Source: Gammaproteobacteria bacterium (GTDB lineage Bacteria > Pseudomonadota > Gammaproteobacteria > Eutrophobiales > Eutrophobiaceae). Taken from it: 64,000 nucleotides of DNA. Positions 23,857-27,044 of the stretch are shown here, piece by piece. The stretch covers positions 2,080,001-2,144,000 of the forward strand of contig CBDCDS010000003.1 in assembly GCA_965215365.1 (NCBI GenBank), read 5' to 3'. Within the stretch, counting starts at the first letter, position 1. The number at the start of each line of letters is the position of its first letter. The notes below the pieces were generated by a model. The model was not told the DNA's origin. It did not search any database and was given only the letters and a program-made list of their open reading frames with translations. The position numbers and the translations under genes were made by a program.

Positions 23857-24750
23857 TCACCCCTCGCTCAGTCCGGCTTGCTGCATGACTTCGGCAGCGA
23901 AGTTGTCTTCTTTTTTCTCCAGTCCTTCACCCACCTCATACCTGACGAAACCGTTGACCACAGCATTGTGTTTCTTTAGCAGTGCCGCGATGGTAACGTC
24001 GGGGTCCTTCACGAAGGCCTGACCCAGTAAGGTATTCTCCTGTAAGAACTTTTGCATGCGGCCGCTGACCATCTTCTCAACGATGGCGTCCGGCTTGCCT
24101 GATTGTGCCGCCTGGGCCAGCTGAATATCCCGCTCCTTAGCCAGCACCTCCGCCGGCACCTCCTGTGCCGCCACACACAGCGGGCTGGCGGCGGCGATGT
24201 GCATGGCCAGGTCTTTGGCGAGGTCGGCATTGTCCACGGACAAGTCCACCACGACGCCGATGCGGATACCGTGTACATAAATGCCCAGCGCGCCGCCGGG
24301 GCTCTGCTGCAGCCGGGCATGGCGCCGCACGCTGATGTTCTCTCCCAGCTTGGTCACCAGTTCCTGTCTGGCGTCTTCCGCCGCTTGCGCGCCACCGTTC
24401 AGGGACACCGCCGCGTACGCCCCGGGCGTTTCATCGCCCTGCTCCAGCAAGGCTCCGGCAAGACTGTGCGCGAAGCCCTGGAAGTTTTCGTCGCGAGCAA
24501 CGAAGTCAGTCTCGCAATTCACTTCCAGCACCAGCGCCCGGCTGTCGTTTTCAGCCGCGGCGATGACGATGGTTCCTTCGGCGGCGATACGTCCGGCTTT
24601 CTTGGCGGCCTTGGCCACGCCGGATTTGCGCATCGCTTCGATTGCCGCTTCAATATCACCGGCAGTCTCCTGCAACGCCTTTTTGCAATCCATCATGCCA
24701 GCGCCGGTGCGCTCTCTTAGTTCTTTTACCATGGAAGCTGTAATTTGCAT
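23857..24750 (-). CDS. tsf: Elongation factor Ts
   Basis: [29 protein letters not shown]. Confidence 0.98.
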
Positions 24751-24807
24751 ATTATCCTCACTACTTTGTATCTGAACCCTGACCCCACCCGTCCTGCCGG
24801 CACCCGT

Positions 24808-26109
24808 TTATTGTGCCGGCCACCCATACTTTTTCAGGCTGACGTTGCCGCTGTCAAGAAAGACAACGCCCTCACCTCGGAGCAAGCGCCGTTGCTCTGA
24901 GGCCGGCCCGGCGCTTGTTCTAATTTCGCCTTTGCTACCAATGATTCTATACCAAGGCGCATCCGGCAGGTCTCGTAACGCCTCGCCCACTCTCTTTGCG
25001 CCCTGTACAGGATTCGGTGCCCCGGCCAGCTCTGCGACTTGCTTATAGGTTGCGACCCGCCCTGTTGGCACCTTGCTCACAGCCGCGGCGATAGCGCTCT
25101 CCCAACCAACCTCGGCTTCACCTGCGACAACCGGCGCCACTTCTTTCTGTTCAGCATCACTATCTGCCGCGACTGGCTGTGCCTGCTCTGGAGCGGGTTT
25201 TGCCGCGGCGGGTTCTGCCTCAACCGGCGCCGTTTCGGCAGCTTCTGCCGCAGCGGGCTCTGCCGCGGCTGGCTCTGCCTGTTTCTCCACCCGGCGCGTC
25301 GCCTTCTTCTTCACTTGGACTTTTTCCTTTGGCGGCGCTTTTTTCTGCTTGTGCCTGGGCAGCGGCGCGCCTTCGGCATCGAGTTCGATGAACTCGTCTT
25401 TGTCGCCGCCTTCACCAAGGTGTGCGACGGAGTCCTTGCCGTTAATAATGGCGTCGGCCACAGCTTTGGTATAAAGCTTGATGGAGCGGATGGCGTCATC
25501 ATTGCCGGGAATCACGTAATCGACGCCGTTCGGGCTGTTATTGCTATCTACCACGCCAACCACGGGGATCTTGAGTTTTACCGCTTCGCTGACTGCGATA
25601 TCCTCATAGCCCACGTCAATAATGAATAATGCGTCCGGCCAGCCGTCCATATCCTTGATGCCGGACATGTTGCGCTCCAGTTTGTCGAGTTCCCGTTGCA
25701 ACTGTAAGGCCTCTTTCTTGCTTAACCGGGCCATGCCGCCGTTGGTTTTCATTTCCTCCAGTTCACGCAGGCGGTTAATGGACTGCTTCACTGTCTTGTA
25801 GTTGGTCAGCAAGCCGCCCAGCCAGCGCAGGTTGACGTAAGGCATGCCGCAGCGTTCCGCCTCTTCCCGGATGGCTTGCTGCGCCGCGCGCTTGGTGCCT
25901 ACAAACAGTATCTTGCCCTTGTTTGCAGACAGCTTGCTGACATAATTCAAGGCTTCCTGGAACAGGACTTTGGTCTGTTCCAGATCGATAATATGGATTT
26001 TATTGCGGTGGCCGTACAGATAAGAGGCCATTTGCGGATTCCAGTAGCGGGTCTGGTGGCCAAAATGGACCCCCGCTTCCAGCATTTCGCGCATGCTGAT
26101 GTCTGACAT
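24808..26109 (-). CDS. rpsB: 30S ribosomal protein uS2 with a C-terminal fused alkyltransferase-like (MGMT-family) domain
   Basis: [14 protein letters not shown] and PGNDDAIRS uS2 core (~aa 1-230); K/A/E/P-rich linker; then [15 protein letters not shown]...VG.AL...PWYRII..G....QRRLL..EGV; one uninterrupted ORF. Confidence 0.95.
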
Positions 26110-26276: not shown

Positions 26277-27044
26277 ATGGCAATTTCTCTGAAAACTCCC
26301 GCTGAGATCGACAAAATGCGCGTGGCTGGCGCGCTGGCGGCGTCGGTGCTGGACATGGTGGGAACCCATGTCCGGGCCGGTGTCACCACCGCCGAACTCG
26401 ATAAAATCTGCCACGACTACATCGTTGAGGAACTAAAGGCCACTCCGGCACCGCTGAACTATCGCGGCTTTCCCCGCTCTATCTGCACCTCGGTCAACCA
26501 TGTGGTCTGCCACGGCATTCCCGGCAACAAGCGCTTGCGCAACGGCGACATCATGAATATCGACATTACCGTCATCAAGGACGGGTATCATGGCGATACC
26601 AGCAAGATGTTCTGTGTCGGCCAGCCATCGATACGGGCCAGACGGCTGGTGCAGACTACGCGGGAGTGCCTGCTGCTCGGTATCGGCATGGTCAGGCCGG
26701 GCGTGCGCCTGGGCGACATAGGTCACGCCATCCAGTCCTACGCCGAAGCCAGACAGTTCTCCGTGGTGCGGGAATACTGCGGCCACGGCATTGGCCGACA
26801 GTTCCACGAAGACCCGCAGGTGCTGCACTATGGCGTGCCCGGCACCGGCGTCACCCTGGAACCGGGTATGACGTTTACCATAGAACCCATGATCAACGCC
26901 GGCAAACGCTATGTCAAACAGTTGCCCGACAACTGGACCGTAGTCACCAAGGATCGCTCCCTGTCGGCGCAGTGGGAACACACCTTGCTGGTTACCGCGG
27001 ACGGCCATGAAGTCCTGACCCGGCGCCCGGAAGAGGAGCTCTGA
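26277..27044 (+). CDS. map: Methionine aminopeptidase type I
   Basis: CTSVNHVVCHGIP, DGYHGDTS, GHGIG..FHE.P, FTIEPM, AQWEHT. Confidence 0.98.
   Translation: MAISLKTPAEIDKMRVAGALAASVLDMVGTHVRAGVTTAELDKICHDYIVEELKATPAPLNYRGFPRSICTSVNHVVCHGIPGNKRLRNGDIMNIDITVIKDGYHGDTSKMFCVGQPSIRARRLVQTTRECLLLGIGMVRPGVRLGDIGHAIQSYAEARQFSVVREYCGHGIGRQFHEDPQVLHYGVPGTGVTLEPGMTFTIEPMINAGKRYVKQLPDNWTVVTKDRSLSAQWEHTLLVTADGHEVLTRRPEEEL

Follow-up and report, generated by a model that had tools for sequence, protein, structure and literature searches.

The gene for ribosomal protein uS2, rpsB, lies in the order map-rpsB-tsf-pyrH within the window that we analysed (the whole stretch, 64,000 nucleotides of gammaproteobacterial DNA), and is read on the minus strand as one frame of 433 amino acids in which a uS2 core is followed by a long tail and by a C-terminal domain derived from the alkyltransferase-like (ATL) proteins. 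The features of the locus are as follows.

23857..24750, minus strand: tsf (EF-Ts), the downstream operon partner, an open reading frame
24751..24807, minus strand: rpsB-tsf spacer, 3' part of the exchangeable cassette (identity between cassette types resumes only at the tsf start)
24808..26109, minus strand: rpsB coding sequence, one 433-aa frame plus stop with an ATG start, comprising uS2 core, tail and ATL domain
24811..25104, minus strand: ATL-derived domain, residues 336-433, from Pfam and from sequence and fold matches
24949..24954, minus strand: Trp386-Tyr387 of the PWYR motif, Trp standing in place of the acceptor Cys
24994..24996, minus strand: Lys372, at the Arg-finger position (Atl1 Arg39), from alignments
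25045..25047, minus strand: Tyr355, equivalent to Atl1 Tyr25, from the alignment to 3gva
25105..25278, minus strand: acidic Ala/Glu/Pro linker, residues 278-335, net charge -11, 71% Ala, Pro and Glu, from segmentation
25279..25362, minus strand: Lys-rich segment, residues 250-277, net charge +10, from segmentation
25363..25431, minus strand: acidic junction, residues 227-249, net charge -6, from segmentation and tail comparison
25432..26109, minus strand: uS2 core, residues 1-226, from PF00318 and TIGR01011
26130..26221, minus strand: rpsB leader, Rfam t44 (RF00127), 41.5 bits against a gathering score of 44, E 1.3e-6
26277..27044, plus strand: map, upstream of rpsB, an open reading frame

The gene, its frame and the segments of its product

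The core matches the uS2 profile over its full length (PF00318 Ribosomal_S2: residues 9-224, model positions 1-216 of 216, 315.9 bits against a cut-off of 26.1, E 1.3e-94) and scores 333.5 bits against the bacterial model TIGR01011 (rpsB_bact, cut-off 76.3); the gene is the only rpsB and the sole TIGR01011 match of its genome (G000). The match to t44, which we take to be the rpsB leader, covers model positions 1-95 of 95 at a score slightly below the gathering score. The first-pass annotation of this DNA had placed a 433-aa rpsB at its usual locus with leader, promoter and tsf intact: open reading frames, gene order and the t44 match bear this out for the locus, the leader and tsf, whereas the promoter is not confirmed: a simple and weak sigma-70 scan returned no site upstream of rpsB on the minus strand, an outcome that does not count against a promoter.

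Segmentation and Pfam likewise agree with its description of a uS2 core, a Lys-rich and then Ala/Glu/Pro-rich linker, and a complete domain of about 100 residues. The acidic junction is the final stretch common to all tail types and forms the 5' edge of the exchangeable cassette described below, and the Lys-rich segment contains a KVQVKKK motif that is found repeatedly in tails across the genus. The Ala/Glu/Pro linker holds a 15-bp tandem repeat (2.4 copies, 25244-25279) and differs by a 63-bp indel from that of a congener, G006; among 20 fused proteins compared, the spacer between core and ATL domain is 89-188 aa long. Selection is tight on the uS2 core (dN/dS 0.025-0.065), and dN/dS in the linker is 0.18-0.39.

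In four of four sequencing runs, from four studies, a single contig spans the whole gene with no indels, which rules out mis-assembly or frameshift, and no stop or break in frame divides the sequence into two genes. The wider alternative, that the long frame is an artefact or a neutral passenger (two genes joined by mis-assembly or sequencing error, or a recent fusion now decaying), could draw on NCBI records of the same 90% cluster, in which 'MGMT family protein' stands as entries of its own (205 and 107 aa), and on the concentration of strain-level change in the ATL part, where all five of the non-synonymous substitutions among seven in the coding sequence are found; but it must contend with those unbroken contigs, with an open frame retained across 19 clusters and six species, with purifying selection in three sequence pairs, and with a complete ATL domain whose fold is predicted confidently. 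We regard this alternative as largely refuted and scarcely credible. Two further strain substitutions sit in the rpsB-tsf spacer. The motifs quoted from this protein in the first-pass annotation are all present, although two of their residues, Tyr in PWYRII and Ala in DAPW, hold for this strain only: contigs of two other studies carry Y387H and A384V (X6 and X10 in the case of Y387H), giving the usual PWHRI.

Identity and key residues of the C-terminal domain

Scanned as a whole, the 433-aa protein exceeds the cut-offs of both Ribosomal_S2 and the MGMT-family profile DNA_binding_1 (PF01035: residues 338-415, nucleotides 24865-25098, 57.9 bits against 27, E 9.4e-16), and the ATL part scored by itself reaches 60.9 bits. 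An AlphaFold2 (AF2) model of the domain, with a pLDDT of 84.1, was compared with solved structures by Foldseek; all matches with E <0.05 are MGMT-family chains, and the closest solved relatives are two ATLs, 2kif (TM 0.72/0.78) and 3gva (TM 0.71/0.74). The domain thus combines an above-threshold profile match with the winged-helix/helix-turn-helix fold of the MGMT superfamily, the fold being that of the AF2 model. Its best sequence matches are also ATLs (5.4e-15 and 8.2e-9).

A catalytic MGMT can be rejected, because the acceptor Cys is absent: where the active enzymes Ogt, Ada and MGMT carry PCHR, this protein has PWYR, with Trp at the acceptor position in 20 of 20 fused copies, no N-terminal AGT domain, and a TIGR00589 score of 22.8 bits against a cut-off of 46.4. 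Tyr at the position of Atl1 Tyr25 (numbered from the 3gva alignment), the conserved residue that drives nucleotide rotation in ATLs, is present in all 20 fused and all 24 standalone copies. The earlier assignment to ATL type rather than MGMT therefore stands, resting on the Trp, the Tyr and the nearest matches in sequence and fold, as does the reading of Lys at the Arg-finger position.

That last residue sets the fused domains apart. According to the available text of PMC10779285, the Arg finger is conserved across AGTs and ATLs, where it intercalates and takes the place vacated by the flipped base; in canonical members it lies in the recognition helix (Atl1 Arg39, human AGT R128). At this position the standalone ATLs have Arg in 24 of 24 copies, as do 101 of 103 background ATL domains, whereas the fused copies have Gln in 18 and Lys in 2, the present protein (K372) being one of the latter. 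Because the Arg finger is missing, we class the domain as ATL-derived by descent and not as a canonical ATL. Constraint on the position nonetheless persists, since nearly all fused copies share Gln there, and this points to an altered function rather than to decay. Gln can intercalate in other base-flipping enzymes, as Gln237 does in M.HhaI, so the loss of Arg does not prove that base flipping has been lost.

Other residues present a mixed picture. The Arg of PWxR is kept in every one of the 20 fused copies and the equivalent of Arg69 in 16; the His position of PWHR has become variable (Gln in 13, His in 6, Tyr in 1), and the residues at alignment columns Y43, N64 and H78, which every standalone copy retains, have disappeared from the fused group. 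No difference in net charge was found between the ATL domains of the two groups (median 0 in fused against 0.5 in standalone copies).

Descent, selection and exchange of the tail

We recovered rpsB from 21 of the 23 genomes of the genus, and all 21 genes have an extended tail, complete genes encoding 416-519 aa. The tails fall into three types by their endings: the ATL domain in six (G000, G006, G018, G009, G004 and G007, the last assigned across an N gap between core and ATL in its assembly), an unannotated globular module in five (G005, G020, G002, G014 and G008, the last with core and module on different contigs), and Lys/Ala/Pro repeats in ten. Among public proteins, 19 of 43 matches to longer sequences, each a protein cluster, combine PF00318 with PF01035. 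In 300 genomes scored across the class (one more, G272, is not counted), no further uS2-ATL fusion was found, every strong ATL match outside G000 being in a frame of at most 291 aa; three unpublished genomes (G063, G320 and G165) are counted here, and the conclusion is unchanged when they are left out. For twelve other listed uS2 frames of at least 399 aa, the rpsB ORF could be read in eleven (none from L164), giving true uS2 proteins of 250-455 aa, as stop-to-stop frames overstate length. Among 80 ATL loci listed from distant phyla, the genus's own loci lying outside this set, none has uS2 motifs beside the ATL.

The phylogeny of the domain places all 20 fused ATLs on one side of a branch with 100/99 support, within a 99/98 clade that also holds the family's 24 standalone ATLs, and so among ATLs. 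By this sequence-based evidence the ATL module is shown to have a single origin, in the standalone ATL gene of the same lineage. Horizontal gain from a distant donor is not favoured, the fused clade nesting with the family's own ATLs. One protein of other architecture (P0038, a NucS-like domain joined to an ATL) falls inside the fused clade, on an end branch of 1.72 and with weak support (86/52).

Fusion has been accompanied by faster but still constrained evolution. The ATL part is under purifying selection in each of three pairs (pN/pS 0.35, 0.38 and 0.31; P 3.7e-4, 2.4e-5 and 3.6e-6), and with 19 clusters sharing the architecture the fusion is neither unique nor decaying. Across the same genome pairs dN is 0.49-0.59 in the fused ATL against 0.13-0.18 in the standalone one, a rate 3-4 times that of the free paralogue. 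Besides the fusion, the genome encodes an ordinary ATL as a separate protein and an MGMT of PCHR type.

DNA comparison within the genus shows, at the level of sequence, that the stretch from about codon 250 to the tsf start behaves as an exchangeable cassette. Between G018 (ATL ending) and G002 (unannotated module), identity is 97-100% both before about codon 250 and from tsf onwards, and falls to about 30-55% in between, with homology breaking at about codon 247-250. On a tree of the locus, the ATL ending requires at least four changes and the unannotated module likewise at least four, counts that recombination could distort since the tree is built from uS2 core and EF-Ts, at the same locus as the modules. 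Identity in the core and in the ATL domain is nearly uncoupled (Spearman 0.22, 190 pairs): G018 and P0009 share 92% of the core and 100% of the ATL, G009 and P0009 96% and 49%.

The unannotated module has no significant match in Pfam or NCBIfam and none in PADLOC; no match in a PDB profile search had an E value below 0.25, hhalign against the ATL domain gave a probability of 0.1, and the AF2 model (pLDDT 61) is too poor for a fold search. Outside uS2, all of its relatives have either a GIY-YIG nuclease domain (GIY_YIG_2, 2.4e-19) or an endonuclease-III-like domain (match to 2abk, 9.7e-4), and these three relatives, in other architectures, offer weak-to-moderate grounds for suggesting a nucleic-acid role. 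In a genome of the sister genus (G023), uS2 ends in an HhH-type domain (HHH_5, 8.5e-5, below the Pfam cut-off), and its tail matches the C-terminal parts of the NCBIfam NuoE, L21 and PhaH models. Lys/Ala-rich uS2 tails recur in other families of the class. Some tails carry acidic repeats, for example (AKQADAPAEDAVA)n, which are not obvious nucleic-acid binders.

Exchange of this kind might reflect conflict, a surface-exposed tail being diversified by phages, toxins or other ribosome-targeting agents, with modules that serve as decoys or sensors and not as housekeeping binders. Cassette-like replacement between nearly identical flanks, the patchy distribution of tail types, the uncoupled histories of core and module, the fast evolution of the ATL module and the strain-level substitutions concentrated in it would all suit such a history. 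No module, however, matches PADLOC, and a single REase_II match on PAKT repeats looks compositional; dN/dS is below 1 in all pairs measured; and no mobile or defence genes are seen at the map-rpsB-tsf-pyrH locus. Conflict is in our judgement a decidedly improbable driver.

Possible functions and known relatives

[quoted passage not shown] Because the protein is universal, essential and stoichiometric, every ribosome will carry whatever is attached to it. Our best explanation overall, which we favour by a little over even chances, is that the fused, cassette-type tail acts as an interchangeable nucleic-acid hook. The tail would form a flexible tether of roughly 110 residues, suspending a replaceable nucleic-acid-binding module from the solvent side of the 30S near the bS1 site. 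The ATL version still has the Tyr and is predicted to retain the helix-turn-helix and a base pocket lined by the Trp; judged from its sequence, it probably still binds nucleic acid and may prefer O6-alkylguanine. The likely effect would be to hold 30S subunits or ribosomes near DNA or nascent RNA. The fusion and its replaceable nucleic-acid-type modules thus hint that ribosomes may be connected to the binding of DNA or RNA in a way not described so far. A tail standing in for a missing bS1 was rejected, because bS1 is present in the genome at full length (671.8 bits, cut-off 577).

The first-pass annotation had gone further, suggesting that each 30S subunit could bear a tethered damage sensor. 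Spelt out, this would be a dedicated alkylation-damage sensor: a ribosome-tethered ATL that flips out and binds O6-alkylguanine in single-stranded mRNA or rRNA, or in DNA at a coupled RNA polymerase, and so links translation to alkylation surveillance or repair. Several of our observations are congenial to this idea, among them the invariant Trp pocket residue, Tyr and PWxR Arg, the mostly conserved Arg69 equivalent, purifying selection, an ATL fold intact in the AF2 model, and alternative-module relatives that sit in proteins with DNA-repair or nuclease-type domains; losing a finger that intercalates into duplexes is what we would expect for a single-stranded substrate, and, in the available text of PMC10779285, lasting ATL complexes may halt RNA polymerase and set off transcription-coupled repair. 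The claim of a dedicated sensor nevertheless does not hold up well. The Arg finger is gone from every fused copy and kept in every standalone one; the PWHR His varies, and Y43, N64 and H78 are lost; strain-level amino-acid changes all fall in the ATL part; a standalone ATL and a PCHR MGMT are encoded elsewhere in the genome; and, in what the literature we consulted makes available, we found no demonstration of an ATL acting on RNA. Moreover, close relatives have other, interchangeable endings where this protein has the ATL, so lesion sensing cannot be the tail's general function. From the sequences, damage sensing by uS2-ATL is possible, if unlikely; a generic tethered nucleic-acid-binding hook would fit the data better, as the pattern is explained without any lesion specificity.

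A narrower form of the hook would restore some specificity: a swappable lesion- or structure-recognition module coupling ribosomes to nucleic acid, of which the ATL form would be a finger-less reader of O6-alkylguanine in single-stranded nascent mRNA or in DNA by a coupled RNA polymerase, with the GIY-YIG- and EndoIII-related module as its parallel in sister species. We think this quite unlikely; were it true, translation would take a direct part in alkylation surveillance or in triggering transcription-coupled repair.

Alternatively, the tail might act away from the ribosome, on free uS2, for example by altering rpsB-tsf autoregulation or through a DNA-bound uS2 pool that ties repair or a chromatin-type activity to ribosome synthesis. 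uS2 with bS1 is a known autogenous repressor of rpsB-tsf, as the accessible portions of the literature describe, the leader element is present here, and the cassette takes in the rpsB-tsf spacer; yet uS2 is stoichiometric and essential and the rpsB gene single, so that every ribosome would carry the tail unless it were processed. We consider an off-ribosome function improbable.

Whichever role applies, it is unexpected that a descendant of a DNA-alkylation sensor should be kept by selection on a ribosomal protein, and that the tail of an essential ribosomal gene should be an exchangeable cassette among close relatives, with varied nucleic-acid-type endings. If the preferred hook binds DNA, this would be a natural case of ribosomes tethered to the chromosome, bearing on transcription-translation coupling and on ribosome and nucleoid organisation; a hook that recognised alkylated bases would be the first damage sensor carried by a ribosome. 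For the ATL field, the genome is a natural Arg-finger experiment, a free Arg copy alongside a tethered Lys/Gln copy.

Our literature searches found no publication describing a uS2-ATL fusion, in keeping with the first-pass annotation, which knew of no description. Its nearest known systems are the ATLs themselves (S. pombe Atl1, 3gva/3gx4; Vibrio parahaemolyticus ATL, 2kif; and E. coli ATL/YbaZ), with which it shares the fold (TM 0.71-0.78), the best sequence matches, Trp for the acceptor Cys, the conserved Tyr, the lack of an N-terminal AGT domain and, by descent, its nesting with the family's standalone ATLs. Unlike them, it follows a ribosomal protein at its C-terminal end, with a linker of about 110 aa between the two; it also has Lys or Gln for the Arg finger in all 20 copies, and evolves 3-4 times faster than the free paralogue.

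Extended uS2 proteins are known to NCBIfam in two forms, one whose HhH-type C-terminal domain is also found in extended L21, NuoE and PhaH (PRK12311/NF008966) and a 'sunset domain variant' (NF051451); our literature searches found no paper on either. They have in common with uS2-ATL a uS2 core, a low-complexity tail and an appended C-terminal module, and G023 has an ending of the HhH type; uS2-ATL differs in ending in another domain and falls below both cut-offs (NF008966, 300.8 against 526; NF051451, 290.5 against 710). Lineage-specific C-terminal extensions of small-subunit proteins also include, in the text available to us, the histone-H1-like Lys/Ala-rich tail of mosquito RPS6 (PMC548281), which several Lys/Ala/Pro-repeat uS2 tails of the genus and class resemble, and the large uS2 extensions of the Chlamydomonas chlororibosome; those cases concern other organisms and proteins, and in the accessible parts of these sources we found no report of a globular repair-type domain or of cassette exchange.

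Finally, MGMT-family domains of C-terminal type are known as modules of larger proteins, including archaeal AGT-EndoV and ATL-EndoV and C. elegans AGT-2 with its histone-like part (PMC10779285, from the available text), and the protein collection that we searched also has ATL joined to NUDIX, AlkD, EVE, DEAD-box helicase, GNAT and NucS-like domains. In all of these fusions the partners are DNA-repair, nucleotide or nucleic-acid enzymes, whereas here the partner is a structural protein of the ribosome.

The rpsB-ATL gene and its C-terminal domain

The first-pass annotation described rpsB, at its canonical locus, as extended to 433 aa by an alkyltransferase-like (ATL) domain, a member of the MGMT family with Trp in place of the acceptor Cys. 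We find a single open reading frame in the usual gene order map / rpsB / tsf / pyrH, preceded by what we take to be the rpsB leader (t44), with the following features, all on the minus strand:

24808-26109: rpsB, one open reading frame, 433 aa
26130-26221: Rfam t44 match directly upstream of rpsB (41.5 bits, slightly short of the gathering score; E 1.3e-6)
residues 227-249: acidic junction between uS2 core and ATL
residues 250-277: Lys-rich stretch between core and ATL, net +10
residues 278-335: acidic Ala/Glu/Pro linker between core and ATL, net -11

Pfam places Ribosomal_S2 over residues 9-224 (315.9 bits) and DNA_binding_1, the MGMT family, over residues 338-415 (57.9 bits) of this one protein, both far above cut-off. 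With NCBIfam, the N-terminal part is rpsB_bact (333.5 bits versus a cut-off of 76.3), and the 433-aa protein stays below cut-off for both of the extended uS2 variants that NCBIfam catalogues and for its catalytic ogt model. Among solved structures searched by sequence, the closest relatives of the C-terminal domain are the Vibrio ATL 2kif (5.4e-15) and Schizosaccharomyces pombe Atl1 (3gva, 8.2e-9), the best match to a catalytic MGMT reaching only ~0.01; an AlphaFold2 model (pLDDT 84.1, 26 aligned sequences) superposes on 2kif with TM 0.72/0.78 and on 3gva/3gx4 with ~0.7. Counted along the alignment to 3gva, Tyr355 corresponds to the base-flipping Tyr25, Trp386 to Trp56 and Lys372 to Arg39, bearing out the annotation's reading of an ATL-type domain with Lys at the Arg-finger position. 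The genome of the window (G000) has two further MGMT-family genes, which brings its total to three. One is a separate standalone ATL whose 110-aa frame contains ARQVG and PWHRI; the other, located elsewhere in the genome, encodes an IPCHRI protein of 314 aa with a PF01035 match of 98.7 bits and an N-terminal part of ~220 aa, presumably the catalytic, Ada-like alkyltransferase:

G000:C3:318099-318335 (L040 868-1812), plus strand: IPCHRI protein, outside the window

At least 84% of the gene's sampled words are present in ten sequencing runs from four studies. In one run per study, at least one of which may be the window's source, a single contig covers 24700-26250 without insertion or deletion in all four (0, 0, 2 and 10 substitutions), so that no stop or frameshift divides the gene. 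The nine listed strain substitutions are confined to 24754-24959, in the final third of the ATL part and in the spacer: seven in the ATL part (A432V, P431Q, R411Q, Y387H and A384V, with two synonymous) and two non-coding in the spacer, with none listed in the uS2 core or linker or elsewhere in the other ~1150 bp of the gene. Because Y387H turns PWYR of the window strain into PWHR in other strains, the motif originally quoted stands as to its ATL-type Trp, its Tyr being strain-specific. The G000 gene and that of its congener G006 have likewise diverged at the 3' end (48-65% identity).

Distribution and exchange of uS2 tails

The architecture recurs in relatives. Among 23 genomes of the genus, rpsB was recovered in 21, G011 (83% complete) and G021 (77% complete) yielding a standalone ATL and no rpsB. 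Every recovered rpsB has an extended tail (complete genes 416-519 aa): six end in an ATL domain (G000, G006, G018, G009, G004 and G007, the last with a run of N between core and ATL), five in a second globular module of ~110 aa (G005, G020, G002, G014 and G008, the last with core and module on separate contigs) and ten in low-complexity repeats, for example (PAKTTAKA)n or (AKQADAPAEDAVA)n. The four other ATL tails that were scanned match PF01035 at 65.6-76.7 bits, and a standalone ATL is present in all 22 other genomes of the genus. The tandem-repeat tails of these two kinds (loci L020, L022, L023 and L025 of G022, G016, G015 and G013; L026 and L028 of G001 and G019) vary in copy number between species; a PADLOC match of the PAKT repeat to 'REase_II' (7.3e-14) looks compositional.

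A fused-ATL profile found 43 matches among 8000 scored candidates from longer public proteins, 19 of them PF00318 plus PF01035 proteins of 433-507 aa; the remaining 24 join ATL to NUDIX, AlkD, EVE, helicase, GNAT, NucS-like or unassigned parts. Fused clusters, where named at all, are called 'small subunit ribosomal protein S2' or, in two truncated NCBI entries, 'MGMT family protein', public annotation sometimes calling the C-terminal part alone and thereby hiding the fusion. The 90% cluster of public protein P0004 holds NCBI records of 205 and 107 aa called 'MGMT family protein'. A class-wide sample of 300 scored genomes spanning 271 genera (including the unpublished G063, G320 and G165) yielded no other uS2-ATL fusion; its strong ATL matches outside G000 all lie in frames of at most 291 aa.

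The second globular module, with the consensus ..EIASQRE..Y..LS.WI..ETG...AGRGMLSA.VVR...TPG.GFY.., occurs in five of the 23 genomes of the genus, always as a uS2 tail and never as a standalone copy:

L019:1207-1548, minus strand: module at uS2 tail end
L017:2719-3057, plus strand: module at uS2 tail end
L021:2554-2907, plus strand: module at uS2 tail end
L027:2587-2967, plus strand: module at uS2 tail end

Searches of Pfam, NCBIfam, PADLOC and PDB gave it no match, and its AlphaFold2 model reaches pLDDT 61. In public data, 41 of its 44 matches are PF00318 proteins; the three non-uS2 relatives (E 4e-11 to 1.3e-8) are a 258-aa protein without assigned family, one carrying a GIY_YIG_2 nuclease domain (2.4e-19) and one with a C-terminal match to endonuclease III (2abk, 9.7e-4).

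Both sister genera examined also have extended uS2, in G024 a 337-aa protein with a Lys/Ala tail and in G023 one ending in a helix-hairpin-helix (HhH)-type domain. The latter matches the C-terminal parts of NCBIfam models for extended uS2 (PRK12311), L21 (PRK12278), NuoE (PRK12373) and phasin PhaH, placing one module in four unrelated protein families. Of 11 long-frame uS2 genes read across the class, two are of ordinary length; Lys/Ala-rich tails occur in G302, G030, G164, G176, G262, G039 and G101, and G255, from another family, has a 455-aa uS2 in which PF00318 is the only domain found:

L141:1306-2382, minus strand: G023 uS2, 359 aa, HhH-type tail
L155:383-1747, minus strand: G255 uS2, 455 aa, with Lys-rich stretch, acidic spacer and globular C-terminal part of ~130 aa

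By sequence, then, appended uS2 endings, mostly of nucleic-acid type, are recurrent, and ATL is the genus-specific variant.

On a locus tree of uS2 core plus adjacent EF-Ts, ATL and the second module are interleaved, each needing at least four changes: G005 (module) is sister to G000 and G006 (ATL; 100/99), and G018 (ATL) groups with G002, G020 and G008 (module; 99/97). DNA identity between G018 and G002 is 97-100% over map, leader and rpsB to about codon 250, falls to ~30-55% across the whole tail and 163-bp spacer, and recovers to 93-100% where tsf begins. Across 20 fused proteins, whose core-to-ATL spacers span 89-188 aa, identity in the core is almost independent of identity in the ATL (Spearman 0.22, 190 pairs): public protein P0009 is 92% identical to G018 in the core and 100% in the ATL, and to G009 96% and 49%. 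The simplest reading of these patterns is that the tail has been repeatedly swapped by homologous exchange among lineages of the genus. Differing tail types (some ATL, both repeat types) share a short terminal motif, ..(T/A)E(A/V)KQD (L018, L038, L020-L028; P0012, P0013, P0015, P0016), and the G000, G006 and G018 proteins stop right after ATL, which suggests that an older tail received the ATL and in some cases has kept its original end.

Ancestry, selection and residue changes of the fused ATL

We built a maximum-likelihood tree of 73 ATL domains (20 fused, 24 standalone from the family, 29 others), leaving out P0020, a near-duplicate of P0019, and P0003, P0004, P0006 and P0007, which match the G000, G006, G009 and G004 copies (P0004 differing from that of G006 at few residues). 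All fused copies lie to one side of a 100/99 branch and share a 99/98 clade with the family's standalone ATLs; P0038, a long-branched protein that is not uS2, is placed, weakly supported, within the fused clade. The branches of the fused clade exceed those of the standalone clade several-fold in length, and pairwise dN is 0.49-0.59 for fused ATLs versus 0.13-0.18 for the standalone paralogue in the same genome pairs. Despite this fast change the fused domain is constrained: pN/pS is 0.35 (G000-G006), 0.38 (G009-G004) and 0.31 (G018-G007), and under neutrality a non-synonymous count this low has a binomial probability of 3.7e-4, 2.4e-5 and 3.6e-6, respectively. For the uS2 core dN/dS is 0.025-0.065, and for the linker 0.18-0.39.

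Compared column by column, all 20 fused and 24 standalone copies keep the equivalents of Tyr25 and Trp56 and the Arg of PWxR; the E-x-E-G motif is kept in both sets, and the Arg69 equivalent in 16 of 20 fused copies. The Arg-finger column reads Q18 K2 in the fused set versus R24 in the standalone set, and the residue after Trp, His, reads Q13 H6 Y1 versus H23 Q1. Fused copies have lost the standalone-invariant Y, N and H of columns 43, 64 and 78 and gained consensus residues of their own, among others Q, E and R in columns 12, 80 and 83. The finger is described as highly conserved in a 2023 AGT/ATL review (PMC10779285). The background set of 103 other MGMT-family domains comprised 80 diverse loci among the matches listed and 23 of the 24 other-architecture proteins, extraction having failed for one. 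Arg occupies this column in 101 of them, the only exceptions being P0038 (Q) and P0041 (P), public 441-aa fusions of a NucS-like part (PF01939) to ATL; a second ATL lineage without the finger may exist apart from the uS2 fusions. The near-fixation of Gln points to changed constraint rather than decay. In the M.HhaI-DNA complex a Gln fills the gap, and human AGT R128A loses DNA repair and retains the reaction with free O6-benzylguanine; so, even with the finger lost, the base pocket may remain functional.

A proposed tethered hook and its known counterparts

Given the architecture, conservation, origin, selection, finger replacement and cassette behaviour observed, we propose that the ~110-residue uS2 tail would serve as a flexible tether, with an interchangeable hook at its end that would bind nucleic acid. 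In the ATL version the helix-turn-helix (HTH) and base pocket appear to be retained, making a preference for O6-alkylguanine possible, perhaps on single-stranded nucleic acid, where a gap-filling finger would not be needed. The same retained features speak for the ribosome-borne alkylation sensor on the 30S subunit proposed in the first-pass annotation; that proposal leaves unexplained the unrelated endings at the same site in sister species, and we keep it as the minority reading beside the interchangeable hook. G000 has bS1, and uS2 is required for bS1 docking and may stabilise the Shine-Dalgarno helix (PMC10931766).

The earlier remark that no description of this fusion was known to its author agrees with our literature search, which, with subscription journals and supplements outside it, found nothing containing both 'alkyltransferase-like' and 'ribosomal protein S2'. 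The uS2 passages of a 2024 review of extraribosomal functions include no such extension (PMC10931766), and AGT/ATL fusions named in the 2023 review are to EndoV and to a histone-like part (PMC10779285). Extended uS2 variants and ATL fusions are each already known kinds; what appears to be new is their combination, along with the exchange of tail cassettes within an essential ribosomal gene.
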